Source: a phage
NCBI GenBank assembly: GCA_020619395.1
Contig: GCA_020619395.1_4860.1
Strand: one strand, 5' to 3'
Length of the DNA: 64,000 nucleotides
Both the position numbers and the translations under genes were made by a program. Below, in pieces: positions 1 to 14,556 of this stretch. The notes under the pieces are model-generated. The model saw nothing but the letters and a program-made list of their open reading frames with translations, was not told the origin of the DNA and searched no databases. Positions within the stretch are counted from its first letter, which is position 1. Every line of letters starts with the position of its first letter.

Positions 1-3000
1 CTAATGGCTCTGTTGTGTTGGCGTGTGGGTATGCCGACACTACTGGAACCGCCCGGTTTATGGAGTGGAAAGCAGGCAACAATACATTACGTATTGAGTC
101 GACTGGCAGTGCCTTGGGGATGGATAAGCTGACGCTTAATGGTACGACGTTACTGACCACAACTGCTCTCATGGGCTATCAACAAGACCCTGGTACCGGC
201 GGTGGTACCGTTGACCCGGATGACAACAAACTGTACATTAGCGGGGTGAACGGCATTACTTTCACGGGTAAAGGGTCAAAAGCCGATCCCGTCACCGGGA
301 AGGTCACAGCCAAACCCGCGACGACCTCTGAACCTGGCGTTGTGACGCTGACTGATAAGCCGAGCGATGTAGTCAAGGGACAAGCAGTCACCCCAGCTTC
401 GCTCTTACCGTACGAGGGTGATCTGTCTTCGTACGTCAGGAAAACAACGCTGCTGAATAACCAGCCGATGGACACTGGTAGCCGAACGCTAACGAAAAAG
501 GATTTGGGTCTGGACTTGGCTGATAACACAGCTGACGTCGATAAACCACTTTCTGATGCGTTGGCAGAAGCAGTTACCGGTCTTAGTGATAAAGATCACC
601 ATCACAACTTCGCCGATTTACAGATCCCAACGGCTTCTCAAACAGTTCCCGGTATCGCTCGATATTCTACCAACCTAAACGGCTTGTCGGATAATCGCGG
701 CGTTACCCCGAACGTTCTGAACGATTTGTCAAAACGTTTAGACGTAGTTGCAGCTGCGCTAGCAAACGCGAAAGAGGATTCCGTGACCGATTTTGCCGCT
801 GTGCGCGGTAAGACTTGGACTGTGGGATCTACACGTACCACCCTCGCCGTAACGGATTTGAATTATTTCTATCTGTTAAATGGTGCACGTAAAGAGGGGA
901 CGGTATCTGGTTCGATAGACTTGCAAACCACCCCGATGTTCCAGTGGTTCTCTCCAGATAACCGTATGGAAAGAACGTGGCAGAACGCGGTAATTAATAC
1001 CGGTGCCGGTATTGATTTTAGTGGGTTTGAGGTTGCCGTCCCGGAAACGAACTACGGTGCGCAGATTGGGTTAACGACAACCGGAATGGGTGATTTGTCG
1101 GTCGTTAACCTCTTGGCGAAAACGTGGGTTCGTTGCGACTCTGGTAAGCTGCGGATTTGGGTTCGTGGCGGTGGTGCTGTTTCTGTTTATCTGGACGGTG
1201 AAATTATCGGTGCGGGTATTACAGAAGCGGGGTATCTGGAGGCGAAGGTCAAGGAGGGGTGGAAGCAACACTGCTTAGCATTCCGTGCCGAGTGTAACGA
1301 TAGCGCTAAAGCAGCCGCAATTCGTTTCACAATTTACGACGGTGACTTTGCGGTTGGGGCCTCGGATAAAAACACCAAAGTTGCCCGCCTGCAGGAGTTT
1401 GTTAAGACGCCGAACGGTTTAAGGCATTACCTTTACGTGAACATGATAACCGATGCGTTATATTCGCGCGCCGAACCTATTGTGGACACGGAAGGTATTA
1501 ACCTGGAACGTGGGTATATCGGCCACATTGATGTCCCTGACGCGGGATTGGTTGCAGGCACGACTTACGAGTTTGAAACGACGTTTGATTTTGGCATGGC
1601 GTCCGAACTTAAACGGCACTTCGAAACACGTCTAGCACACGGGGTGAGTAACACCGACTGGTCGTTGACGGATAACCCGAAAATGCTGCCGTTGAATAAG
1701 GTTGATCCATTACCTAAACAATGGCTGTATGCGTATCCAACTAACCCGTCTGTTTCTGGGGATAACCTCGTTCGTTTAGATCGTGGGTTATTTGATTATA
1801 AATTCGTAAGTGCCACCTCGCTTAGGATTCTTCTTGCGGCGGTTGTTTCCACTGAAAACGCGTCCCCGTATTGCTGGTTTACACCAAGCAACCCGAAAGA
1901 AAATGGTATGGCGACATTCGAGGGTTCGGTGGTAATCGACACTGATTATCCTGAAGTCCCAAAAACCTCGGACGTCGAAGTTTCATTAAACTTCATGACC
2001 CCTTCTGCTGATGGGAAAGGTAAAACCAGAGTCCTGCGGTGGAGTAACACCAAGACCAGTTTAAATTGTGGCTTTATTGCCGCGCCGTACGATAAACCAA
2101 CCGGAAGAATTGCCAGCACACAATCCAGCGTTACTAATACGCTGGTTGATGCTCCTCGTGTAATCAAGAGCGTGGATGTTCAGTCGCCTGACTGTTTAGA
2201 CTATCTCCCGGTTTCAATCGCTAGCGAGTTCGCAGCCATTGGTTCGCGCTGGCTTATTCGTTATCGCTATATTGTTGATACGCAGATACTGCGAATATCG
2301 ACGATTAGTAAGATAGGTGGCCAGGCTTCGGCAACTGTTCGTGAGATAGAATACGACGTTCCGTTTGACGCGATTGATTATTTTAAAGGTGGCGCTTTAT
2401 CGATTAGTGTTACTGGCATCGAAACTGGTGAAGGCGTCACAATCAACCACGGTTTGATGGACCCCTCCACAACAGAAGTAGATTTAAATCGTTTCCATTA
2501 TCTACGCTCACTATTTGAGTCGTATATTGAGCGTTCTCCAGACAGCCAGTCTTCTGGGCATGAGGAGATGTCGATATCAACCGTCACGTTCGCGAACTTT
2601 GGAGATAACGTCGATAACCCGGTTACGGAATACATCACGATGTCTGCTGCAAGTGAGGGTTATCCGGAACTTGCACCGAACGGTAAACTCCCCGCACCGT
2701 TTTACAAAGGGCTGCAGAAACGTGGTGCTCCGCTACTTGAGTCGGCTCCTGCAGACTATACGTCTAACGGTGGTGAATGGAAGTACGGCTTTATGCGGGC
2801 TTATCGCCCAACTCAAAATGAGCGTTTTGTGTCGGTAAATGGGACAATGCTCTCTAACTACCCTGGATATATCATCGTGGGTAGTGAGAAAATTCCGGGT
2901 AATGTTATACCTTTCAGTGCATCGACAACAGCTGTTCAGATATCTGGGACTCTTGCCCGCACGAAACCGATGCAGCCAATTCACATCGTGTTCGTGCCTC

Positions 3001-3242
3001 CGGAAGGTTCTGTGCCGCCGCTGCAAGCGAAGTTCACTATTAATGGCGTGGGCAGTAGTGGTAATCCGATGTTCGTGATTACTGAAACGACACCGGTGGA
3101 ACTTCGCACTGGTGGCGAGACGATTCTCATTGAGAAGCGTAATCCATTCCACATCCCCACCAGGACATGGGATTGGATTTTACAAACGTTGGATACTGAA
3201 CGTAGAAACGAAGGCAACAACTCGGGTGAGTGGGCCTCTTAG
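1..3242 (+). CDS. Large tail fibre protein, 5' end probably outside window
   Basis: ORF open to window edge (no in-frame stop from nt 3; tracked GTG at 15 has no SD). 1075 codons. DKDHHHNFADL..TVPGIARYS motif recurs in the next gene. Fibre call is by size, composition and context. Confidence 0.6.
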   Translation, partial: NGSVVLACGYADTTGTARFMEWKAGNNTLRIESTGSALGMDKLTLNGTTLLTTTALMGYQQDPGTGGGTVDPDDNKLYISGVNGITFTGKGSKADPVTGKVTAKPATTSEPGVVTLTDKPSDVVKGQAVTPASLLPYEGDLSSYVRKTTLLNNQPMDTGSRTLTKKDLGLDLADNTADVDKPLSDALAEAVTGLSDKDHHHNFADLQIPTASQTVPGIARYSTNLNGLSDNRGVTPNVLNDLSKRLDVVAAALANAKEDSVTDFAAVRGKTWTVGSTRTTLAVTDLNYFYLLNGARKEGTVSGSIDLQTTPMFQWFSPDNRMERTWQNAVINTGAGIDFSGFEVAVPETNYGAQIGLTTTGMGDLSVVNLLAKTWVRCDSGKLRIWVRGGGAVSVYLDGEIIGAGITEAGYLEAKVKEGWKQHCLAFRAECNDSAKAAAIRFTIYDGDFAVGASDKNTKVARLQEFVKTPNGLRHYLYVNMITDALYSRAEPIVDTEGINLERGYIGHIDVPDAGLVAGTTYEFETTFDFGMASELKRHFETRLAHGVSNTDWSLTDNPKMLPLNKVDPLPKQWLYAYPTNPSVSGDNLVRLDRGLFDYKFVSATSLRILLAAVVSTENASPYCWFTPSNPKENGMATFEGSVVIDTDYPEVPKTSDVEVSLNFMTPSADGKGKTRVLRWSNTKTSLNCGFIAAPYDKPTGRIASTQSSVTNTLVDAPRVIKSVDVQSPDCLDYLPVSIASEFAAIGSRWLIRYRYIVDTQILRISTISKIGGQASATVREIEYDVPFDAIDYFKGGALSISVTGIETGEGVTINHGLMDPSTTEVDLNRFHYLRSLFESYIERSPDSQSSGHEEMSISTVTFANFGDNVDNPVTEYITMSAASEGYPELAPNGKLPAPFYKGLQKRGAPLLESAPADYTSNGGEWKYGFMRAYRPTQNERFVSVNGTMLSNYPGYIIVGSEKIPGNVIPFSASTTAVQISGTLARTKPMQPIHIVFVPPEGSVPPLQAKFTINGVGSSGNPMFVITETTPVELRTGGETILIEKRNPFHIPTRTWDWILQTLDTERRNEGNNSGEWAS

Positions 3243-3277
3243 GACGGACTGCCTACGGGCGGGTAGTCCGTAGGTAA

Positions 3278-3317
3278 ACCGCCCTTCCGTTATTGGGAGG
3301 GCGGTCTCCGTTTTATT
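3278..3317 (+). terminator. Rho-independent terminator after fibre gene 1
   Basis: 11-bp stem ACCGCCCTTCC/GGGAGGGCGGT, loop GTTATT, then CTCCGTTTTATT. A second hairpin (ACGGACT..AGTCCGT) lies at 3243-3273. Confidence 0.5.
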
Positions 3318-3337
3318 ACAGATTAGGAGTGTTTGCA

Positions 3338-6300
3338 ATGCCGAGAGAAGATGCGGCGCAGTTTAACGGTACCCTCAGTACCGCTACTTACCCGAACCGT
3401 TATTCGACGGTCATTCCCGTCGAAGCACCGTTCTATCGCATCGGGTTAACGTTAACCGTTACCGATAAAACAACCGGAACCAAACGCAAGTTAATAGAAG
3501 GTCTTGATTATTTCTTAGGACATTACTTCCAGGAATTAGCCGAGGCTGAGAACGATGCAATATACGGCAGCATAATGCTGCTGAACGCCACAGAGGTAGA
3601 ATACGAGTTGTTGTCGGTTGGTCGACAGTATCGCATCCCTGCTTCTGAAATCGGCAAGTATCTGGTTAAGACAGATATGAAAGACCCGCGTAACTGCGAT
3701 TGGTCTGAGCTGATGAAATATCCGCCGATTATCTCGCCAATCGACCCGCCAAAAGATCTCGAAGAAGCCATCCTTCGCGATGAGATTGTAAAGGCGCTGG
3801 AAGATATCCGACTGGGCATTTTAGAACGTGCCCACGAACTGGATGAGGCTTTTGCCGAAGTTACCGATTTGATTTATCAGAACGGTAAACAGGTGTTTGA
3901 TGACGAAATGTATCAACACCACCTGATTAAAAATGCACATGGTTACACCTGTGGCGATATCGGTGCACTCCCTGTGCTCGGTAAGGCCGTGGATGCGACT
4001 AAGGCGTTTGGACGTACACTGGCAGAGCTAGTGACGTTAATGTCTACCAGCGGCATCCAACAGAAACACGTTGACATGCTTCTGGATAATACCCTGGGTG
4101 ATTTACTGGGCCGTATGCGTGTTCTGAATAACGACGCGATTACGTTCCAAACAACGTCTGGTCACGTTATCAGCATGAAGGGTGAGAAGTTCATTATCAC
4201 CTCGACAAAACCGCTGGTATTAAAAGCTGACCAGGATAACAACGAACCGGGTATCGCTACGGAGTTCAGTGCTGGTCTGAACACGCTTTGGGTTCACTCG
4301 GGTAAAGCAGGTGACAAGTGGGGCGCTTATGATGCAGGTGTGCTTGCACCTGTATATAACAGCGTGTATCTCGTTACACCGGATATGGTTAAGATGTACT
4401 TGACCTCGGTGAAGATACTTCCAGCAAACGCCTACTTCAAGTCCAGCGACACGTTGAAGATTTACGGCTCTGGTAAAGAAACAAACAAAGTTTACATGAA
4501 TGCGGAGCTGCCTGCAGCAACCACAACTGTGCAGGGTTTGTTTGCGATTACTAACCTCTCGGCATCCGCTGCAGCGTCCACAGCGATTTCCCAAAAAGCT
4601 GTTACTGACTTGAAGAACAAACTCGACGGATATGTGGACGACACGTATACAGTCAATGGTAAAGGGTTTGTATTAGATTCAAACGGGCAGATGCATCTGA
4701 CCTTAACCGCGGCAGATTTCGGTATTGAGAAGATGAACAATACCGGACCGCTGGAGAAACCGGTTACTAATGCGTTGCGCACCGTGCTATCAGGCAAAGC
4801 GCTTACAACGCACACCCACACCATTGCAGATCTCGATAACGTGCCGTACGCATCCACGTCTGTTACAGGTTTGGCTAAACTGTGGGATGCAATCGACACT
4901 ACCTCGGATAAGATGGTCACTTCGCGTCAGGGCTTCTTGCTTGAACAAAAGATTGACACACTGAATGACAAGATTGCTACGCTGTTGCCCGCATGGACTG
5001 TCGGCGGATCATCGTACGGCAACAATAACTTCTTGCCTATACCTGTCCAGGGGAACTACGAAGGGTATACCAAAAACCAAACCTGGCAGAAAGGTTTGGC
5101 GCGTTACGAGTCTGGTAAGGTTTACTCGCTCCGTAACGGTTCTAACGGGAATCCACCAGGTGACTGGGCTATCTATTACGCCTATGCTGATGTGTCGCCA
5201 AGCAATACGCTGGAAAATATGCAGCAGACGTCCGTACGTTATCGACCCGCTGGAATGTCGGCGTATCCTGGGGTGAATCTGGTTGCTATTGTGATTACCG
5301 GTACCGATGCAATGATCTGCTTAGGCAGTGACGGTGCGTACTACCTGGTCATCTTCGATGGGACGATTGACCATGCAAAACATCATCGTGTTGTTAAAGT
5401 GGTGTTGGGTGATTACAAGAACGGTAATGGTGCGGGCACAGTAACGACAGCACCGTGGGCTCCAAACGCTTCTACAGACGATTTGATTGTTTGTAATGAG
5501 CGTGTCTACCTGTTGCGTACGGTGCTTACCTCCGGTGACTATTTCGTGAGTATGCGTAGCATCGCACTCAACGAACTTAATCCGGGTGGTAGCAACACGT
5601 TTGTGGCGGATGCGTTAACAGGCGGGATATTAACGTCGGGTGAAAACGTTTATCTACGACAGGGACAGAAACGTGCAGCTTCCGATGCGCTCCCAGCACC
5701 AGTTACACAGATCTACGCAGACGCGTTAGCGAAATGGAACAATGCAATCAACTTTGTACATGGCCCTGAGTGTAATCACGCGATTGGTGTTGATGGGCTG
5801 AAATTTCGTGTTGGTTTAACGCCAACAGTCTGGTTTGCCTCCTCCACAGGACAGACGATTAACTTTAAACAGTGGACGTCAAGCTTTGTTGTCGACTGTA
5901 GCGCATTAACGGTAACTCTGGAAGGCGCTGATCGATTCCCTATTGTGGCTGATCTTACCACGGTTCGTTATAACAGTGGTGCTGAGATTGGGATTCCGAG
6001 CCGGAAGTGGGGCGAAGGCCAAGCTAATAACAAAACCTTTGCAACATCGCAAGACAAGTATATTGTTTCGCAAGGACATGCAGGCGATCGCGACCTAATG
6101 CCTTATGTCACGATTACAACGTTAGATGACGGTGTGAGTTGGTACGAGTACCTGTCGTGCGACTACAACTTCACTGCCAGAAGTTTTAGTGCGGTAATGT
6201 TAAACCAAGGTCGTGGTTCTATCTACGAGCTGGGTATGGCGTATCCGCTGACTCTGGGAGCGAATTCCAGACTTATCTGGTTGTCACAACCGCGTTCCCG

Positions 6301-8521
6301 TTTGGCAATTGAAGTTGAGTTTGATCCGAACACCACTTACTCAGGTAAGGCGGGGTATGGCCCAACTAACAATCGTCGTGTAGTAGATTCTATCACGTAT
6401 GAGAATCTGTCGCAGATGTGCCACATTGTTACACCGGCGTCGCCTGGTACAGAGTTAAACGGCTGGTATTGCACAGGACCAGAAACATTCCCTTATCACA
6501 ACGTTTCTGGCACTTTCACGATTCATGCCGATCGGTTGACGCTGTCACAAGCCGAATGGGATAAGATGAAGCAGATGATCATCGACGGTGCACCGGCTGG
6601 CGCTGCGAATGGTTATGCTTCGGAATTTATCCTTGCCGCAAATAACGCAGGAAAGGCATTGTTCTCCGTTTGGTTCATCGGCATTGGTACGGCCACACCG
6701 CTCACGTTAGCACAAGTAGCATGTACGCGTACTGTGAACAACGTTAACGTGTTGGATATCTACTACTTTACACTGAAACCAACAATCAGCAACGGGCAGG
6801 TAACATTCCCCGCAGCGATATTGGCTTTGTTTGACTTCTATAACAACCTCGACTATGGCTTGAACTATGCTACGTTGGGTGAGATAACGGGAGGAAAAAC
6901 ACGCCGGCCGGGACAACCTACACTGGTGTCGGTAGATGGTACTCGGTTCGGGTTGTATCTTCCACACACGTTAACCTTGCGCCTGATTGGCGACTTGGGT
7001 GCGCTTAACTACGCTGTTGGTCTTACGCTGTCTAATGGTACTTGGACGCGTTCTTCTGCTCCACACGGCGTTGGACGTATGGCACCGGCACACACTCCAG
7101 TCAGTCCAGCTTATCTGGCCCATCGCGATCAAGTGATGCTACACAACTCATCTCTCGACTACGTCTACTGTGGTGGTATCGCAACGTCGTCGAGTGATTT
7201 TGTCGCGGCTCCTAATTTTAGTGGCCCGACTGAATCGGTTGTCATTGCTGGTGTGGAAACAGCTGAAGGTTGGCTGGTATATGTGACTGAGGAAGTTGAC
7301 CTGCGTTTCGGCTCGAGCACTTATAAGCTGCCTACGTGGTATATTGACCTCAGCGCAGCATTTCCAACAAACCATCAGAACCGGACATTCTACCTGCACG
7401 CCAAGGTAGAAAATGGTACACCGAAGTACGTAATGGACGTGATTCAACATCCAGACACTGAAACGGAACTCTATATCGGGTATGTTAAAACGGGCTCGTC
7501 GCGAGTCGTCGAGACTAACGTCGAACATGCTAAGCGATTAGGGGCGGTGAAACAACTGTTGGAACATGCGGCGGTTGAGAATAAGCATGATGTGGAGGTG
7601 GGAAGGGATGCAGCAACGGGCAGACTGGCACCATTGCGTAAAGAAGCGATGGGTCCTTTGTCGATCGATGCTACGAAAGGCTATCTGGATAGTCAGTTGC
7701 TTTATACCGTATCCGACGCACAGCGTCGCGGTAAAGCGATGGTGTCCAAACGTTTCGAAGGCTTGAAAACTTTGCCGGCGTTTACTCAGGCAAACAAGTC
7801 GGGGGCGTTTTGGAAACATCCTACAACAATTGCGACGGTAACGGCCGATGAGAACAGTGAAGCGACATCGTTGGGTATGGAGTGGGTAGGTATTCCAACG
7901 CCCGCTTTCGCTCCGACCTCAACAAACCTGATGGTGGTGGTGCAAAGTAAATTCGTCGTCCCAGGTACACCGGGAGTAGAAACGACCTTTAATGTCCACG
8001 TTGCCCCATGGGAGGCGGTGGATGGCTTTTTCTACAACGTCGAGGCGGAAGGTACGGATGTTAACATTGATGAAAATCCAGAAGTGTTATTGCCGTCACC
8101 ACATACCGTGCACCACAAACAGCACTCTCTGCCAGCAGGCGTGCCGTGTACCTTTACATTTGTCGCGGCGGTAAGTTCTTCAGCGCTCGAAACAGCTAAC
8201 CAGCATATTTGCTCTTGGCTTTTCACTGACGCTGGGGGACTACCAATCACCACCGATCTTTCGGATAGTAAGATTCAAATCTTACCACAGCCGGGAGAGA
8301 CCAACGGCACACCAGTTGTTCTGAACAGTCGTAGCTACACGTTTACGAATGTGACAGGTGCAATCCCGGTTGTTACCACGGGCGCTCAGGGTTTATTCCC
8401 ACCACCGATCGTGGCGTGGGATGGCGATGATCTTACGTTAACGATTGCGCACGATTGGGTGAACGAGAGGGGACGTCAACAGCCTGATGTTATCCAGGTC
8501 AATCTTATGTTCCGTACCTAA
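3338..8521 (+). CDS. Very large tail fibre protein (1727 aa)
   Basis: Start moved to ATG 3338 (AGGAG 8 nt upstream) from tracked 3293. TTHTHTIADL..SVTGLAKLW motif shared with upstream gene. Confidence 0.7.
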   Translation: MPREDAAQFNGTLSTATYPNRYSTVIPVEAPFYRIGLTLTVTDKTTGTKRKLIEGLDYFLGHYFQELAEAENDAIYGSIMLLNATEVEYELLSVGRQYRIPASEIGKYLVKTDMKDPRNCDWSELMKYPPIISPIDPPKDLEEAILRDEIVKALEDIRLGILERAHELDEAFAEVTDLIYQNGKQVFDDEMYQHHLIKNAHGYTCGDIGALPVLGKAVDATKAFGRTLAELVTLMSTSGIQQKHVDMLLDNTLGDLLGRMRVLNNDAITFQTTSGHVISMKGEKFIITSTKPLVLKADQDNNEPGIATEFSAGLNTLWVHSGKAGDKWGAYDAGVLAPVYNSVYLVTPDMVKMYLTSVKILPANAYFKSSDTLKIYGSGKETNKVYMNAELPAATTTVQGLFAITNLSASAAASTAISQKAVTDLKNKLDGYVDDTYTVNGKGFVLDSNGQMHLTLTAADFGIEKMNNTGPLEKPVTNALRTVLSGKALTTHTHTIADLDNVPYASTSVTGLAKLWDAIDTTSDKMVTSRQGFLLEQKIDTLNDKIATLLPAWTVGGSSYGNNNFLPIPVQGNYEGYTKNQTWQKGLARYESGKVYSLRNGSNGNPPGDWAIYYAYADVSPSNTLENMQQTSVRYRPAGMSAYPGVNLVAIVITGTDAMICLGSDGAYYLVIFDGTIDHAKHHRVVKVVLGDYKNGNGAGTVTTAPWAPNASTDDLIVCNERVYLLRTVLTSGDYFVSMRSIALNELNPGGSNTFVADALTGGILTSGENVYLRQGQKRAASDALPAPVTQIYADALAKWNNAINFVHGPECNHAIGVDGLKFRVGLTPTVWFASSTGQTINFKQWTSSFVVDCSALTVTLEGADRFPIVADLTTVRYNSGAEIGIPSRKWGEGQANNKTFATSQDKYIVSQGHAGDRDLMPYVTITTLDDGVSWYEYLSCDYNFTARSFSAVMLNQGRGSIYELGMAYPLTLGANSRLIWLSQPRSRLAIEVEFDPNTTYSGKAGYGPTNNRRVVDSITYENLSQMCHIVTPASPGTELNGWYCTGPETFPYHNVSGTFTIHADRLTLSQAEWDKMKQMIIDGAPAGAANGYASEFILAANNAGKALFSVWFIGIGTATPLTLAQVACTRTVNNVNVLDIYYFTLKPTISNGQVTFPAAILALFDFYNNLDYGLNYATLGEITGGKTRRPGQPTLVSVDGTRFGLYLPHTLTLRLIGDLGALNYAVGLTLSNGTWTRSSAPHGVGRMAPAHTPVSPAYLAHRDQVMLHNSSLDYVYCGGIATSSSDFVAAPNFSGPTESVVIAGVETAEGWLVYVTEEVDLRFGSSTYKLPTWYIDLSAAFPTNHQNRTFYLHAKVENGTPKYVMDVIQHPDTETELYIGYVKTGSSRVVETNVEHAKRLGAVKQLLEHAAVENKHDVEVGRDAATGRLAPLRKEAMGPLSIDATKGYLDSQLLYTVSDAQRRGKAMVSKRFEGLKTLPAFTQANKSGAFWKHPTTIATVTADENSEATSLGMEWVGIPTPAFAPTSTNLMVVVQSKFVVPGTPGVETTFNVHVAPWEAVDGFFYNVEAEGTDVNIDENPEVLLPSPHTVHHKQHSLPAGVPCTFTFVAAVSSSALETANQHICSWLFTDAGGLPITTDLSDSKIQILPQPGETNGTPVVLNSRSYTFTNVTGAIPVVTTGAQGLFPPPIVAWDGDDLTLTIAHDWVNERGRQQPDVIQVNLMFRT

Positions 8522-8568
8522 CAGATAGCGCTATGGGGCAAGGAAGCCCCAATCAAAGGAGTTTGGCA

Positions 8569-9771
8569 ATGGCCGAAATCATTTATCAGTACCCGCTTGA
8601 CCTTACCGGGACATTAACGTCGAACGCCGTTACACGGCGTATTACGTTAGGTTCTGGTAAAGTTAACCGGGCTTTTGCTTTTCCTGACGGAGCTTTCTAC
8701 GCGGATACCTTCCGCTTGGCAGCTGCGAATAAACCAGGTGTCTACCCGTACAAACGCGGCACAGACTACGAACTGATTTTTGCACATACTGCATATCAGA
8801 AAATGACCAAGAACCGCGAAGTGGTCATGGGTGTGGTGGTAACTAACTCGGCCATTCCTACTGATATCGAAGTCTCTGCGCAAGTCGTTGGTGGTTTTCA
8901 GTCCGCGAACGTCGAAGGTATCCGACAAGCGATTGCGTCGCTGAAAATTGAAGACCGTGTGGTGGACTTCAAGGATCTTCGAAACGTACCTGATACGTTC
9001 CCATCCGCCCCGACGTATAAAGACCTTGGCGATATCTACGGTTTTGAGTATATCATTACCGTACTCGCTGGGATTAAAGATGCGATTAACTCCGGCTCTG
9101 CAGTACAGCTGGAAGAAATCAAAGGTATTCTGGACGGTCTGAAAAACGACTTCCTCGATGCCTTAAATGCCCACATCAACGCCGAAGGTAACGTACACAA
9201 TCTCGACATTCATCAGGTTAATGGCCTGACGGAGACGGAGATTCGTGCTCTGATTCAAAGTGTACAGACTGCCATTGACGCCACTATCAAAGATATCGGC
9301 GACTTAAGAGCAGCAGACACGGCGTTGGGGCAACGCATCGATGCAATTGTGGCTTCGTTAGCCGCGTGGAACGACCAGCTTAATGTAGTTGCTCAAAATT
9401 ACCAGAAAATGTCGTTAGCATTAGCTAACCTTAATTCTCTGGTGTTGCAATTACAGAAGATGGTTAACGATCTTCAGTCTGCACTGAATGAAACAAATCA
9501 GCGCGTCACGGATCTTGAGAATCAGGGCAAAGACTTCCAACAGCAAATTGATAACCTGCAAGGACAAATCAACAGTCTTAAAACTCAGGTTATAAACAAC
9601 ACCAACGCAATTTCGCAGGCAAACCAGAATCTGGCGAACCATGCGGCTGCGGATAACCCACACCCGAATTACCTCCATAAACAGTATGGCGGTGTTGTGC
9701 AGGCTGCTGTTCACGTCAACAACAGCCTCACCTCGCGCGACGATGTTCAAGCTGAAGCGGGTACTAAGTAA
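8569..9771 (+). CDS. Fibre-associated protein with C-terminal coiled coil
   Basis: ATG 8569 with AAGGAG upstream (tracked start 8533). C-terminal heptad-like region LQKMVNDLQSALNETNQRVTDLENQGKDFQQQIDNLQGQINSLKTQ. Confidence 0.6.
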   Translation: MAEIIYQYPLDLTGTLTSNAVTRRITLGSGKVNRAFAFPDGAFYADTFRLAAANKPGVYPYKRGTDYELIFAHTAYQKMTKNREVVMGVVVTNSAIPTDIEVSAQVVGGFQSANVEGIRQAIASLKIEDRVVDFKDLRNVPDTFPSAPTYKDLGDIYGFEYIITVLAGIKDAINSGSAVQLEEIKGILDGLKNDFLDALNAHINAEGNVHNLDIHQVNGLTETEIRALIQSVQTAIDATIKDIGDLRAADTALGQRIDAIVASLAAWNDQLNVVAQNYQKMSLALANLNSLVLQLQKMVNDLQSALNETNQRVTDLENQGKDFQQQIDNLQGQINSLKTQVINNTNAISQANQNLANHAAADNPHPNYLHKQYGGVVQAAVHVNNSLTSRDDVQAEAGTK

Positions 9772-11791: not shown

Positions 11792-12706
11792 ATGACAGAT
11801 CAAGTAGAATCCAGGATCTCGTCTGAACTGTACGACAAACCGTCAATTCTGTCGGTTGTCGCAACTTCTAAGTGTAACTTAGACTGTAGCTTCTGTGGAG
11901 GGGCTTATTACATGGATAGAGAAGATACTTCTCGTGAGTTTCAACGCGAAGAGATTCTCTCGATTTTAGAGAAGAATCCGGATATCGGTGAGATTCATTG
12001 GACGGGCGGTGAGCCGCTGTTAGCGCAGCGTAAGATTGAAGACTTCGTGAACGAGTTGAAGGAGTCTCATCCGAACCTCCGTCATCACATGTACACCAAC
12101 GGTTTAAAGATGCGTAAATCACATCTGCCGTTGCTGAAACAGTTCGACCTTATCTTTGTGTCCATTGACGGCTACAAGAAGTCGGAACGTCCGTTTATGA
12201 ACTTTGTAAACGGTGGTAATCACGAAGCGCTGGAAGTGCTGTACGAGCTGGACAACTATTACACCTGGGGTGTGATGACGCGTGACCAGTTAGGTGATAA
12301 ACGCTGGTACGAAGATTTCATCGAGCTGCACCGAGCAATCTATCATTACCGTCCAGGTGGTGTGTCGTTGTTGTTTGATGCGATGATGCCGAAACCGTTA
12401 TCGCCAGACCACGTCATGAACTTCATGTACGGGTATTGGAAAATACTCGACAATATCGAACGCCTTAACATGCAGAACGATTCTGAATGTGGGCTCGCGA
12501 TCAGTAAAATGTTCGATACCGAGTGCAACACGTGCAGTGAAGTGCTGTGGCTTAACGCCGACGGTACGCAGGAGCAAATTCAGAACGCCCCAGAGATATT
12601 GGAAGTCGGCTGTAATCGCCTGGCGCGTTCTATCGGCGTTGATGCGTATAACTACATCAACCGTGTAATTTCTGCTAAGCGTAAACGGGCGGCGAACAAT
12701 GAGTAA
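11792..12706 (+). CDS. Radical SAM enzyme (304 aa)
   Basis: CNLDCSFCGG CxxxCxxC motif near N-terminus; additional C-terminal Cys cluster (ECNTCSE..VGC). Start moved to ATG 11792 (tracked 11756). Confidence 0.75.
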   Translation: MTDQVESRISSELYDKPSILSVVATSKCNLDCSFCGGAYYMDREDTSREFQREEILSILEKNPDIGEIHWTGGEPLLAQRKIEDFVNELKESHPNLRHHMYTNGLKMRKSHLPLLKQFDLIFVSIDGYKKSERPFMNFVNGGNHEALEVLYELDNYYTWGVMTRDQLGDKRWYEDFIELHRAIYHYRPGGVSLLFDAMMPKPLSPDHVMNFMYGYWKILDNIERLNMQNDSECGLAISKMFDTECNTCSEVLWLNADGTQEQIQNAPEILEVGCNRLARSIGVDAYNYINRVISAKRKRAANNE

Positions 12707-14027
12707 TAGCGAACAGCAAATCCAGTACACACCACGCACGTATCAGGTTGTGACTAACCTGTCATGTAACCTGGACTGCGAATACTGCTACGAGCGTAAA
12801 TATCCGCGTAACAACAAAGTAGCAGACGTGATTGATTTTATCCACGCTTGTTTCGAGCGCGATAAAGATATCCCGAACGTTGAAGTCATCATCGATATCA
12901 TCGGTGGTGAGCCGTTCATGCAGCCTAAACTTCTTTTGGCGGCCTTTGAAACCGCAGAGAAGTTATGCGCAGAACACAATCGCCCGTATATGTTCAGTAT
13001 CTCCACGAACGGTACGCTTCTGGACCGTCCGCTGAACAAAGAAATTATCGAGCGCTGGAAAGACAAACTGTCTATTGGGGTCTCCATCGATGGTTTACCT
13101 GAAGTCCATGACAAATATCGTATCTTTACCACGACGCGTGAAGGGTCGTACGAAGCTGCGGTACGCGGTTACAATTATCTGAAGAGTGTTGGCATCGCTG
13201 AACTGGGCGTAAAAGCGACGTTTACGATCGATACATTGCCGCACTATGCCGCCAGCATGAAATCGTTAATTGACATGTCCGGCGGTGGTACCATTTCTGG
13301 TAATGTAACGTACGAAGATATCCTGCCGCGCCATATGGCGTTGGATATCGCGAACCAGATGATGGACGTGATGGACTACTGGATTGAGAAGGGTCTGCAC
13401 ACCAACCCGCGTAACACGATTACACACATCATCCCGGATGGCCTGAACTTTATGGCAACTTGGGACCCGGATTGGCGTGACAAACTCTTACACGACGACT
13501 CTGTTCGTCTCGACCCAGAACGCCTGAAACCGTACTGCGGTACGTTGACGCACATGACCTGTCTCGGCTTTGATCGCAAGATTTACGGTTGTAACCGTTT
13601 CATGTCCACGGTAACTTCCCGCTCTGCTGTAGCGGAACTGGTCGGTCGTGAGTTTGTGAGTCTGGACGGTGGTAAGCTGTTAGAAGAGATTCAAACGCAG
13701 TACACCAACTACCCAGAAACCTGTTTAGGGTGTCCGATGAAACACAGCTGCGGTAGCTGCGCAGCGGCATCGTACGAAAACGGTGAAGGTACACTGGAAG
13801 ACCGTAAAGCGTATCACGCCGAGCGTCGTCAGTGTGGTTGGACTACTGCGAAGCTGATGGCGGCGGAATATTGGTATCAGAAAACTGGTACGACTCGCGC
13901 ATCAGATTTGCACGATAAATCCATGTGCTATTGTTCACGTTGTGTACGCCAACGTGCCGAAGCAGAAAAATTACAAAACGGAGCCCAGAATGAAGTCAAT
14001 ACTGATTCACAATTTTACGAAGCGTAA
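12699..14027 (+). CDS. Radical SAM enzyme with SPASM/twitch-like C-terminal Cys-rich domain (442 aa)
   Basis: CNLDCEYCYERK CxxxCxxC motif; C-terminal CLGCPMKHSCGSCAAAS..CGW..CYCSRC cluster typical of auxiliary Fe-S domains. Confidence 0.75.
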   Translation: MSNSEQQIQYTPRTYQVVTNLSCNLDCEYCYERKYPRNNKVADVIDFIHACFERDKDIPNVEVIIDIIGGEPFMQPKLLLAAFETAEKLCAEHNRPYMFSISTNGTLLDRPLNKEIIERWKDKLSIGVSIDGLPEVHDKYRIFTTTREGSYEAAVRGYNYLKSVGIAELGVKATFTIDTLPHYAASMKSLIDMSGGGTISGNVTYEDILPRHMALDIANQMMDVMDYWIEKGLHTNPRNTITHIIPDGLNFMATWDPDWRDKLLHDDSVRLDPERLKPYCGTLTHMTCLGFDRKIYGCNRFMSTVTSRSAVAELVGREFVSLDGGKLLEEIQTQYTNYPETCLGCPMKHSCGSCAAASYENGEGTLEDRKAYHAERRQCGWTTAKLMAAEYWYQKTGTTRASDLHDKSMCYCSRCVRQRAEAEKLQNGAQNEVNTDSQFYEA

Positions 14028-14556
14028 ACTGCACTTGGTCGATCGCTTCCTGCGCAAAAGCAAGCTGTACAATGTGCACGCAATTGTGGCAGGGGAAGAC
14101 TTCACTGATGAAATCCAAAGCCTGTTGATTAAATACGGGCTGAATGTGATGATCCCGGTCTACTGCGTTGAGAAAGGACACGAGTCTGTCGCGGAAATCG
14201 AAAAGCGCAACCCTGGCTTTGAGAAGCGACTGCTTGCATACCCACGCCACAAAATCGAACTGCTACGTCACTCTATTGATGAAGCCAGTCCTGAAAGTTT
14301 AGTGGCATTGGGCTTGTCATTCCCGCGGATGCGTATTCGTAACTTACGCTCCAATAACCCGGTTGACGCTTATTACACAGAACGTCAAATCTTCGAAGAA
14401 CACCTGCTCCCGCAGTTGGAAGAAGAAGAGCAACACAACATTTCTCTGTTGTGGGCCGGTAACCTCGATCAGGACTTCCAGATGCTGGACTTCGGTTTGT
14501 TGTTAGAACTTGGCCTGATTGAGGAGGACGAATGTCTGTTACTGACAAAAGCTTAA
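13990..14556 (+). CDS. Hypothetical protein, cluster member (188 aa)
   Basis: ATG 13990 with GGAG upstream (tracked start 13942 overlaps the rSAM gene). No assignable domain. Confidence 0.5.
   Translation: MKSILIHNFTKRKLHLVDRFLRKSKLYNVHAIVAGEDFTDEIQSLLIKYGLNVMIPVYCVEKGHESVAEIEKRNPGFEKRLLAYPRHKIELLRHSIDEASPESLVALGLSFPRMRIRNLRSNNPVDAYYTERQIFEEHLLPQLEEEEQHNISLLWAGNLDQDFQMLDFGLLLELGLIEEDECLLLTKA

Follow-up and report, generated by a model that had tools for sequence, protein, structure and literature searches.

A conserved H-x-H motif in the shared shaft region of giant fibre paralogues from an SPN3US-like jumbo phage

Tandem baseplate/fibre paralogues at the locus

The stretch of DNA analysed here (the window, 64,000 nucleotides of contig GCA_020619395.1_4860.1 in assembly GCA_020619395.1) belongs to a jumbo phage similar to Salmonella phage SPN3US, with which it shares 96.9% nucleotide identity over 8.6 kb and the same gene order across this 8.6-kb segment. 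Its first two genes are syntenic orthologues of SPN3US gp169 and gp168, and the gp170 gene lies upstream of gene 1, outside the window.

1-3242, + strand: gene 1, the SPN3US gp169 orthologue (ACQ60_gp097, 1376 aa), of which the 3'-most 1079 codons are present
3-812, + strand: part of the shared N-terminal region in gene 1 (gp169 residues ~298-567; hhalign, BLASTP)
3338 (ATG) or 3293 (TTG) to 8521, + strand: gene 2, the SPN3US gp168 orthologue (ACQ60_gp098, 1727 aa)
3395-5005, + strand: shared N-terminal region in gene 2 (residues 20-556; hhalign)
8533-9771, + strand: gene 3, the gp167 orthologue, a fourth and short paralogue in which a long coiled coil accompanies the shared N-terminal domain

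The reading frame of gene 1 is open at the window start, its 5' end falling outside, and stops at 3242; its first residue in the window corresponds approximately to residue 298 of the 1376-aa SPN3US orthologue. Gene 1 matches phrog_8078 (E=0) and gene 2 matches phrog_7449 (E=0); both products are candidate baseplate/fibre proteins, that of gene 1 being a candidate virion component, and the gene 2 orthologue gp168 is essential in SPN3US (PMC5694885). Genes 2 (residues 14-586) and 3 have a match to another family, phrog_2163, in common, and gene 3 also shows coiled-coil Pfam matches.

In SPN3US, gp168, gp169 and gp170 have been published as “paralog family C” of baseplate/fibre candidates, which are detected in virions and absent from tailless mutant particles (PMC5694885). 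The window genes likewise encode large neighbouring virion proteins with a homologous N-terminal region and divergent C-termini. A first-pass annotation of this DNA had noticed a short H-x-H motif common to the products of genes 1 and 2 and had placed it in otherwise dissimilar contexts, a description that proves to be wrong. By BLASTP the two proteins align over 226 residues surrounding the motif (25% identity, E 2e-11), and hhalign of the two orthologue sets, drawn from a phage collection and a search of representative sequences, extends the collinear region to ~540 residues (gp169 residues 28-567 with gp168 residues 20-556, E 2.2e-42). The N-terminal regions of gp168 and gp170 are also collinear apart from one insertion (hhalign E 4.7e-33). 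Beyond residue ~560, BLASTP finds nothing significant between gene 1 and gene 2.

Paralogue order does not change across phiEaH2, Parshik, Kwan and CR5, the four other SPN3US-like genomes that were examined. Within the fibre-shaft module described below, paralogues are 16-29% identical to each other, as compared with an overall orthologue identity of 29-45% in the SPN3US-like genera and of 22% in Vibrio phage pVa-21, and the duplication is therefore older than these genera. Genes 1 and 2 and the gp170 gene upstream of them are thus old tandem duplicates encoding SPN3US-type baseplate/fibre proteins, which have kept a common N-terminal region of ~540-560 residues before diverging into unrelated C-terminal parts.

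The motif as a junction of fibre repeats

Both motif strings are present exactly as originally quoted: DKDHHHNFADLQIPTASQTVPGIARYS lies at nt 588-668 in the + frame of gene 1, with its HHH at 597-605, and TTHTHTIADLDNVPYASTSVTGLAKLW at nt 4805-4885 in gene 2, with its HTH at 4811-4819. Each protein contains exactly one H-x-H (0.16 expected from the histidine content of gene 1 and 0.88 from that of gene 2), lying at the C-terminus of the region common to both. Close to this end lies a shaft module of ~150 residues, composed of repeat units found ubiquitously among phage fibres.

312-740, + strand: gene 1 fibre-shaft module (module alignment; an HMM of the alignment matches ORF residues 99-263, E 8e-57)
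312-425, + strand: first gp12/Phage_fiber_2-like unit of gene 1
450-596, + strand: 'LN-x..LTK-x-DLGL-x-x-DNT-x-D-x-DKP-x-S' unit of gene 1
597-620, + strand: HHHNFADL of gene 1
597-605, + strand: H-H-H of gene 1 (H496 and H498 of the SPN3US orthologue), putative ligands of a (His)6 metal site in a trimer
621-740, + strand: second gp12/Phage_fiber_2-like unit of gene 1
4508-4963, + strand: gene 2 fibre-shaft module (module alignment, HMM match and sub-threshold Pfam PTR match)
4508-4624, + strand: unit A1 of gene 2
4649-4810, + strand: 'NG..LTLT-x-x-DFG-x-x-K-x-NNT-x-x-x-EKP-x-T' unit of gene 2
4811-4834, + strand: HTHTIADL of gene 2
4811-4819, + strand: H-T-H of gene 2 (H492, T493 and H494 of gp168)
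4835-4963, + strand: unit A2 of gene 2

The underlying alignment comprises 16 sequences from three paralogue families and six phages. Its HMM finds only one module in each of the two proteins and no further copies elsewhere in the 64-kb window; gene 3 has neither an H-x-H nor a match to it. Within the module, a first gp12/Phage_fiber_2-like unit (A-T-x-x-x-x-G-V-x-x-L ... A-x-T-P-x-x-L) is followed by a '(I/L)NG...LTK-x-D-x-GL-x-x-V-x-NT-x-D-x-x-KP-x-S...AL-x-x-K' unit, ending in a single PTR-type 'H-T-H-x-I-A-D-L', and by a second gp12/Phage_fiber_2-like unit, and the motif is the junction of the second and third units. Judged by its sequence, the motif joins two widespread repeat types, K-A-x-x-x-H-T-H-x-I-A-D-L (PTR, PF12789) and P-x-A-S-x-x-x-x-G-[IL] (Phage_fiber_2/T4 gp12/P2 gpH).

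The relationship with PTR ('Phage tail repeat like') is seen in gene 2, where GKALTTHTHTIADLDNV matches the family consensus 'GKAxxSHTHxIADVTGL'. The corresponding Pfam match spans K-A-L-T-T-H-T-H-T-I-A-D-L and stays below the gathering threshold of 27 bits, with 15.8 bits over the full protein and 22.9 bits (E 8.8e-5) when the 161-residue module is scored by itself. Matches to PTR at E≤10 occur in 6 of the 16 module sequences, and none is reported by Pfam for the H-H-H-N-F-A-D-L unit of gene 1. In contrast to PTR proteins, which carry tandem 20-residue units (sampled members match the 60-position model in 4-5 stretches), each window protein has one unit, and no tandem array of 20-residue 'H-T-H-x-I-x-D-V-T-G-L-Q-x-A-L-D-x-K-A' units is present.

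The search of phage fibres for the motif, advised by the first-pass annotation, was run with phmmer and residues 440-545 of gene 2. It recovered 942 relatives at E≤1e-3 among 1.84 billion representatives, many of them with tandem copies (up to 27 repeats per protein), which makes the motif one copy of a very common tail-fibre repeat. Bona fide PTR members are detectably homologous to this segment (P0010, E 1.9e-31; P0031, E 4.5e-21; P0060, E 5.7e-16), these three scoring 187-216 bits on the PTR model, and relatives sampled from the search include PTR members at 186-216 bits and Phage_fiber_2 members at 743 bits. The relatives show the consensus K-A-x-T-S-H-T-H-T-x-A-D-I, and both histidines are kept in 229 of 290 non-orthologous aligned stretches, a retention of 79% that is inflated because the matches were selected with a query containing H-T-H. 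Only 29% of the 'NT-x-D-x-x-KP-x-S' units in relatives are followed by an H-x-H, and therefore the pair is not needed for the fold of that unit.

Units of the second repeat type, 'P-x-A-[ST]-x-x-x-x-G-[ILV]-x-x-[LY]...[AV]-T-P-x-x-L', occur twice in each window protein. The consensus A-[ST]-x-x-x-x-G-[ILV]-x-x-L ... A-x-T-P-x-x-[LV] is found in gene 1 as 'ATTSEPGVVTL..AVTPASL' and 'ASQTVPGIARY..GVTPNVL', and in gene 2 as 'ATTTVQGLFAI' and 'ASTSVTGLAKL', which differ from the type in lacking the canonical 'A-T-P-x-A-V' ending. Moreover, residues 84-108 of T4 gp12 hold a repeat to which LQIPTASQTVPGIARYSTN of gene 1 is closely similar. Neither window protein reaches the Phage_fiber_2 (PF03406) gathering threshold of 22 bits or is reported at E≤1, and only 2 of the 16 module sequences match this family (best E 0.0037). 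Single copies of PTR and Phage_fiber_2 repeats thus fall below the Pfam thresholds and go unannotated in giant fibre proteins.

Among solved structures, the module profile matches gp12 short tail fibres (9f4b, E 0.004; 5iv5, weakly) and AP22 gp53 (4mtm), with the units given above lined up on their repeats, the matches of the window proteins to gp12-type structures being weak (E 0.004-0.19). The composite SHTHPWNQITGVPTASLTAKGITQLSS, with its leading H-T-H, recurs in P0059, a tail fibre protein of E. coli, and in the P1-like phage vB_EcoM-813R1, and its second half is the repeat of P2 H, P1 S, lambda Stf and Mu S; structures have been solved for Mu S (5yvq) and gp12 (5iv5, 9f4b). The SHTHSIANVTGLQDALDEK unit is present in PDB 9d93 chain La, the closest PTR-like unit with a solved structure that the analysis encountered. 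Direct sequence searches of the PDB gave nothing meaningful for both full window proteins, nothing for a hand-made consensus of the unit and no relative of the PTR-rich P0010. A tblastn search (E≤1e-3) found no PTR/gp12-like module in Pseudomonas phage records, phiKZ-type phages included. In sum, the motif is ordinary: it belongs to a fibre repeat of very wide occurrence, sits within an inherited region and represents no new kind of element, and we regard the part of the explanation made of paralogy and repeat-family relationship as nearly certain. The accounts of family C (PMC5694885) and of phiKZ (PMC13250141) give the paralogy, and neither the H-x-H motif nor the repeat-family relationship is described there.

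Two other origins for the resemblance have to be weighed against common descent. Low-complexity fibre sequence, rich in Thr, Ser and Ala, might produce such a match by chance, and one out of 2000 shuffles of gene 2 did reach a Smith-Waterman score of 49 against the 27-mer of gene 1 (mean 27.6, SD 3.5), although the observed score of 50 was reached by none of them. The resemblance therefore exceeds chance; with the shuffles, the BLASTP and hhalign matches of the surrounding region and the invariance of the motif among orthologues, a chance match becomes practically negligible, and the BLASTP, hhalign and shuffle tests rule it out. The exchange of modules invoked by the first-pass annotation would imply that a short cassette moved between otherwise unrelated fibre genes through horizontal or intragenomic recombination. 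Fibre genes are known mosaics, these repeat units also occur in phages that are very distant (actinophage minor tail proteins; P2, P1, lambda and Mu fibres) and shuffling is, at a deep level, the probable source of the module. However, homology is much wider than the motif, with ~540-560 collinear residues, the similarity of the module DNAs does not rise above shuffled controls (score 14 vs 11.3 ± 1.6), and both the conserved paralogue order and the age of the duplication speak for descent. Given the lack of DNA-level similarity and the collinearity of the paralogues, we reject a recent exchange and consider a transferred cassette in general as barely plausible.

Conservation of H-x-H and a putative metal site

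Non-conservation in orthologues had been named beforehand as the observation that would speak against the motif; instead, H-x-H is invariant in every orthologue examined. In seven gp168-type orthologues, including that of pVa-21 at 22% identity, H492, T493 and H494 are all invariant. Both histidines are likewise present in five gp169-type orthologues (H496 and H498) and in five gp170-type sequences, and none of 11 other gp168-type representatives, taken from clusters at no more than 50% identity, has lost the H-x-H. Only five columns of the module alignment are invariant (N56, P91, H108, H110 and G127), two of them being the motif histidines. The middle residue varies among H, T, K, P and S with both histidines fixed, and two strictly conserved histidines one residue apart are also what is found in (His)6 axial sites.

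The idea of a shared structural or metal-binding joint thus holds as far as sequence goes, H-x-H being invariant across orthologues and paralogues, and metal binding is proposed by analogy with solved H-x-H (His)6 Fe/Zn sites (PMC6116203). In the T4 gp37 tip (2XGF), as in the P2 gpV spike and the shaft of the R1/R2 pyocin fibre, H-x-H forms octahedral (His)6 Fe sites, and in T4 gp12 it forms a Zn site; a role in folding register or stiffness has been proposed for these sites (PMC6116203; PMC12609058). A related His-x7-His Fe “lock” occurs in the stem of the phi11 RBP (PMC4901313). By analogy with T4 gp37 and R-pyocin fibres, the most likely role of H-x-H in the window proteins would be a (His)6 Fe or Zn site on the trimer axis: the chains would form parallel trimers, with the three H-x-H pairs pointing to the three-fold axis and their six imidazoles coordinating one buried Fe (or Zn) ion octahedrally. 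Such a site may fix the register of the chains during folding and stiffen the shaft just before its variable distal part. The pyocin fibre also has a single H-x-H site in the middle of its shaft, proposed to serve folding register and stiffness (PMC6116203). The context differs elsewhere, in the T4 gp37 needle or at a spike apex, since the H-x-H of the window sits in a PTR-type unit, and no sequence homology was detected between the window proteins and the known fibre or spike domains bearing H-x-H. An AlphaFold2 model of the module (monomer, 5-sequence alignment) was unusable, with a mean pLDDT of 36.5 and a pTM of 0.23. We give the metal-site mechanism a somewhat better than even chance, and the whole explanation, joining paralogy, repeat families and metal site, a probability of about 0.6.

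For the poorly understood fibres of SPN3US-type jumbo phages, these results offer a precise and testable handle. Residue ~560 of gp168 and gp169 marks the end of the conserved shaft and the start of the variable, presumably host-binding part, and the likely metal-clamped register point could help in the design of soluble trimeric fragments or of chimeric fibres.

The same histidines might instead owe their conservation to the repeat fold itself, whether by packing or hydrogen bonds inside the trimer core or by contact with a chaperone, with no metal ion bound. The neighbouring fold tolerates the absence of the pair, as seen in the 71% of related 'KP-x-S' units without a following H-x-H, and no solved structure was found in the PDB combining the PTR repeat with a described metal. 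Against this stands the conservation of the histidines, which exceeds that of nearly all their surroundings and accounts for two of the five invariant columns at 16-25% paralogue identity, together with fixed histidines around a variable residue, the pattern expected for ligands. Moreover, the cited H-x-H of fibres and spikes (T4 gp37, R1/R2 pyocin fibre, P2 gpV, phi92 spike and T4 gp12) all bind Fe or Zn on the axis (PMC6116203), and a metal-free role seems to us unlikely. The metal-site reading further takes the fibres as simple homotrimers, which is an assumption; in the related phiKZ fibres, the N-terminal domains of gp131-like paralogues anchor the fibres to the baseplate, several paralogues contributing theirs to a single hetero-hexameric fibre base (PMC13250141). 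Paralogues might likewise co-assemble here, with in-register H-x-H from different gene products contributing to one mixed (His)6 site and so locking a heteromeric fibre; if true, such a site, setting the register of a hetero-oligomeric fibre, would be of a kind not yet described. The similar abundance of gp168, gp169 and gp170 in the SPN3US virion (PMC5694885) agrees with this possibility, whereas in the model of phiKZ the heteromeric base has a gp131 homotrimer extending beneath it, in an account where histidine, iron or metal are nowhere mentioned (PMC13250141). The H-x-H is found at a nearly equal distance from the N-terminus in gp168-type (485-492) and gp169-type (496) proteins of all phages examined, and at 490 in pVa-21 gp124, but simple descent also predicts equal spacing. 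All in all we hold a mixed site for very unlikely, as in gp170-type proteins an insertion of ~200-220 residues puts the H-x-H at 696, and pVa-21 has two H-x-H paralogues, not three.

Paralogous fibre genes and a shared module

The first 8.6 kb of the window correspond, with 96.9% DNA identity, to positions 145457-154056 (reverse strand) of the Salmonella jumbo phage SPN3US (Seoulvirus), and ~30 close relatives of this phage match them similarly. Ali et al. 2017 number ACQ60_gp097, gp098 and gp099 as gp169, gp168 and gp167, and a fourth large gene of 1237 aa as gp170 (PMC5694885); in the SPN3US annotation, the latter lies directly upstream of the gene 1 orthologue. The proteins gp168 (188 kDa, essential), gp169 (149 kDa) and gp170 (135 kDa) make up the virion "Paralog family C", grouped earlier by PSI-BLAST, which comprises phiKZ gp131-related baseplate or tail-fibre candidates that are missing from a tailless mutant (PMC5694885).

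Genes, ~150-residue modules and motif strings (window coordinates)
before window start-3242: gene 1, 3' 1079 codons; orthologue of ACQ60_gp097 (1376 aa)
312-740: module of gene 1
588-668: motif string of gene 1, H-H-H at 597-605
3338 (ATG)-8521: gene 2, orthologue of ACQ60_gp098 (1727 aa); an alternative upstream TTG start at 3293 is also in open frame
4508-4963: module of gene 2
4805-4885: motif string of gene 2, H-T-H at 4811-4819
8533-9771: gene 3, orthologue of the 400-aa gp099

The first-pass annotation had noted a common motif, H-x-H..ADL..GIA(R/K), in genes 1 and 2, and both strings were found as quoted, with exactly one H-x-H in each protein. Aligning the gene 1 27-mer to gene 2 gives a Smith-Waterman score of 50, which none of 2000 shuffled versions of gene 2 reached (27.6 +/- 3.5); the motif is therefore real, and the odds of a chance resemblance are negligible. 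Its contexts, described at first as otherwise dissimilar, turn out to be homologous: a BLASTP alignment spans 226 residues on either side of and including the motif (25% identity, E 2e-11), and hhalign of the orthologue alignments places gp169 28-567 collinear with gp168 20-556 (E 2.2e-42) and gp170 26-773 with gp168 20-569 (E 4.7e-33), a ~220-residue insertion in gp170 being the exception. Past residue ~560, BLASTP found no relatedness between the paralogues. Gene 3 has the N-terminal domain alone in common (phrog_2163 matches genes 2 and 3), followed by a coiled coil without H-x-H.

The module exchange once suggested is, as a recent event, very improbable, given collinear homology over ~540 residues, module DNA of genes 1 and 2 with no similarity beyond shuffled controls (best local score 14 versus 11.3 +/- 1.6), and a gp170-gp169-gp168-gp167 order kept in all four further SPN3US-like phages (phiEaH2, Parshik, Kwan and CR5). 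Similarity is also higher between orthologues than between paralogues. Judged by sequence comparison, the paralogues are old tandem duplicates and not the outcome of a recent cassette transfer. An ancient, much deeper shuffling is possible, since the repeat units are common to unrelated phages.

Conservation of the histidine pair and its repeat units

A motif that varied among orthologues would speak against a shared structural joint. Across the paralogue clusters of phiEaH2, Parshik, Kwan and CR5 and the two paralogues of Vibrio phage pVa-21, the H-x-H is invariant in the gp168-, gp169- and gp170-type sets. Invariant residues are H492, T493 and H494, and likewise G511 and L515 of TGLAKL, in the gp168 type (n=7, overall identity down to 22%); H496, H498, L503, A508 and G514 in the gp169 type (n=5); and H696, T697, H698, G704, T709 and G714 in the gp170 type (n=5). 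When the 16 module sequences are aligned jointly (16-29% identity between paralogue families), the invariant columns are only N56, P91, H108, H110 and G127. The H-x-H and, downstream of it, VP-x-A-[ST]-x-x-x-x-G are retained in 11/11 additional gp168-type representatives from clusters at <=50% identity, and pVa-21 gp124 (gp169-like) has H-K-H at residue 490. The two histidines are almost absolutely conserved, both being fixed around a middle H, T, K, P or S.

In each of the three paralogue families, the module is made up of the same four parts.

Parts of the module
Part 1: A-T-T-x-x-x-G-x-x-x-L ... A-x-T-P-x-x-L
Part 2: (I/L)-N-G ... L-T-K-x-D-x-G-L-x-x-V-x-N-T-x-D-x-x-K-P-x-S ... A-L-x-x-K
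Part 3: H-x-H-x-x-A-x-L
Part 4, second such unit: P-x-A-[ST]-x-x-x-x-G-[ILV]-x-x-[LY] ... [AV]-T-P-x-x-L

The Pfam family PTR (PF12789, "Phage tail repeat like") matches K-A-L-T-T-H-T-H-T-I-A-D-L below its cut-off of 27 bits (full protein 15.8, module 22.9), and Phage_fiber_2 (PF03406), also sub-threshold, matches 2/16 module sequences. A full phmmer scan of 1.84 billion cluster representatives with gene 2 residues 440-545 retrieved 942 proteins at E<=1e-3, of which 143 reach E<=1e-10; in many of them the query matches 5-27 stretches. Those sampled are clear members of PTR (72-216 bits) or Phage_fiber_2 (83 and 743 bits). The relatives' consensus is L-T-K-x-D-V-G-L-x-N-V-D-N-T-S-D-x-x-K-P-[IV]-S-T-A-T-Q-T-A-L-D-G-K-A-x-T-S-H-T-H-T-x-A-D-[IV]-T. 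Both histidines are kept in 229 of 290 non-orthologous aligned stretches, a figure somewhat inflated by the H-T-H of the query, and H-x-H follows the N-T-x-D-x-x-K-P-x-S unit in only 190 of the relatives' 655 units, which makes the pair an optional sub-element of the repeat. By tblastn, the motif region also matches minor tail proteins of Arthrobacter, Gordonia and Curtobacterium siphophages.

With a profile of the 16 module sequences, the second half of the motif aligns with N-terminal repeats of the gp12 short tail fibre (9f4b, E 0.004; T4 gp12 5iv5 weakly) and with AP22 gp53 (4mtm), and 'LQIPTASQTVPGIARYSTN' of gene 1 is very similar to the repeat that T4 gp12 has at residues 84-108. An E. 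coli 'tail fiber protein' (P0059, MCZ5247813.1) has many copies of the entire composite 'SHTHPWNQITGVPTASLTAKGITQLSS', which phage vB_EcoM-813R1 also contains. P2 gpH, P1 S, lambda Stf and Mu S share the repeat that forms the second part of this composite. These alignments show the motif's second half to be the classical repeat of enterobacterial fibres; together with the PTR-type relatives, they make the motif the point where two very common fibre repeat units meet, each in single copy here.

A putative axial metal site

The most likely role of the H-x-H is a putative axial Fe/Zn site: the fibre proteins would form parallel trimers, the three H-x-H pairs would face the three-fold axis, and together they would coordinate octahedrally one buried Fe (or Zn) ion. 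Axial ions of this (His)6 type are established in the T4 gp37 tip, the mid-shaft of the R1/R2 pyocin fibre, the P2 gpV and phi92 spikes and T4 gp12 (Zn), and they have been proposed as reference points for chain register in folding and for stiffness tuning (PMC6116203; PMC12609058). The phi11 RBP has a His-x7-His Fe 'lock' at a bundle junction (PMC4901313), and H-x-H as a mark of iron sites in fibres is already a widespread idea (PMC11705849). The H-x-H here lies just ahead of the paralogues' divergence into distinct distal parts, a position in keeping with a role in register or clamping. Structure prediction of the module, as a monomer only, gave a model of too low a confidence to be informative (mean pLDDT 36.5). 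We found no solved structure that has exactly this unit and a metal described for it; 'SHTHSIANVTGLQDALDEK' occurs in 'Tail collar fibers, gp4' (PDB 9d93, chain La).

A purely structural H-x-H, free of metal, would be the alternative, which we regard as rather unlikely. Quite improbable is a heteromeric site assembled from different paralogues, despite a nearly identical distance from H-x-H to the N-terminus in the gp168 and gp169 types, the similar virion abundance of gp168, gp169 and gp170 (PMC5694885) and the hetero-hexameric base of phiKZ fibres (PMC13250141); the gp170 insertion and the presence of only two such paralogues in pVa-21 argue against it.

The paralogy has been published before, Pfam already has the repeat families, and metal sites of the H-x-H type are textbook matter for phage fibres; the only novelty is that each of these jumbo-phage proteins has a single, sub-threshold, strictly conserved copy at the end of the shared region. 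In practice, this is of use for construct design and for fixing the conserved/variable boundary of SPN3US fibres.

Other histidine motifs, neighbouring genes and database records

A second conserved His-containing motif occurs in the shared N-terminal region, at gene 2 residues 192-211 (window 3911-3970, 'YQHHLIKNAHGYTCGDIGAL') and in gene 3 (~9160-9240, estimated coordinates, 'HINAEGNVHNLDIHQVNGL'). H194 and H201 are invariant in the gp168 type; H199, H206 and H216 in the gp169 type (P-x-H-I-A-x-x-N-P-H-G-T-T-x-A-Q-x-G-A-H-P); and the gp170 type reads A-P-A-H-x-H-V-x-R-K-D-N-P-H. A similar and widespread fibre unit, H...N-P-H-x-V-T-x-x-Q-V-G-L-G-N-V-D-N-T-S-D, is seen in the database proteins P0018, P0046 and P0061; the motif could be another metal or register site. 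The gp170 type (1386-5099 of the SPN3US locus record L001, outside the window, upstream of gene 1) shares the ~150-residue module ('VGHTHTSAAFGIKRATTTEFGLVQ', residues 696-698) and has a second H-x-H, APAHTHV, at 407-409; its ~220-residue insertion is absent from both gp168 and gp169.

Gene 3 is a short fourth paralogue, with ~160 residues of predicted coiled coil after its N-terminal domain; residues 210-375 are matched by dozens of coiled-coil Pfam families, and it may be the counterpart of the helical bundle at the phiKZ fibre base. A few kb downstream of the fibre paralogues, at ~11918-14033 (from the SPN3US annotation, L001 17918-20033), lie two adjoining radical SAM domain genes, whose position is kept in SPN3US, phiEaH2, Parshik, Kwan and CR5.

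Some SPFM database entries look like scrambled assemblies: LR535906 (SPFM8) and LR535908 (SPFM10) match the window in 40 small pieces that cover only 29% of it, tblastn matches are fragmented in LR535906, LR535907, LR535908 and LR535913 (SPFM8, 9, 10 and 15), and P0002, a protein of SPFM12, consists of ~20-residue gp168 segments in reversed block order. Finally, gp168- or gp170-type fragments are recorded as partial 'hypothetical protein' of E. coli or Salmonella enterica (P0001, P0003, P0004 and P0005), on contigs that are either very short (310-745 bp) or 240-kb, and are probably jumbo-phage DNA inside bacterial assemblies.
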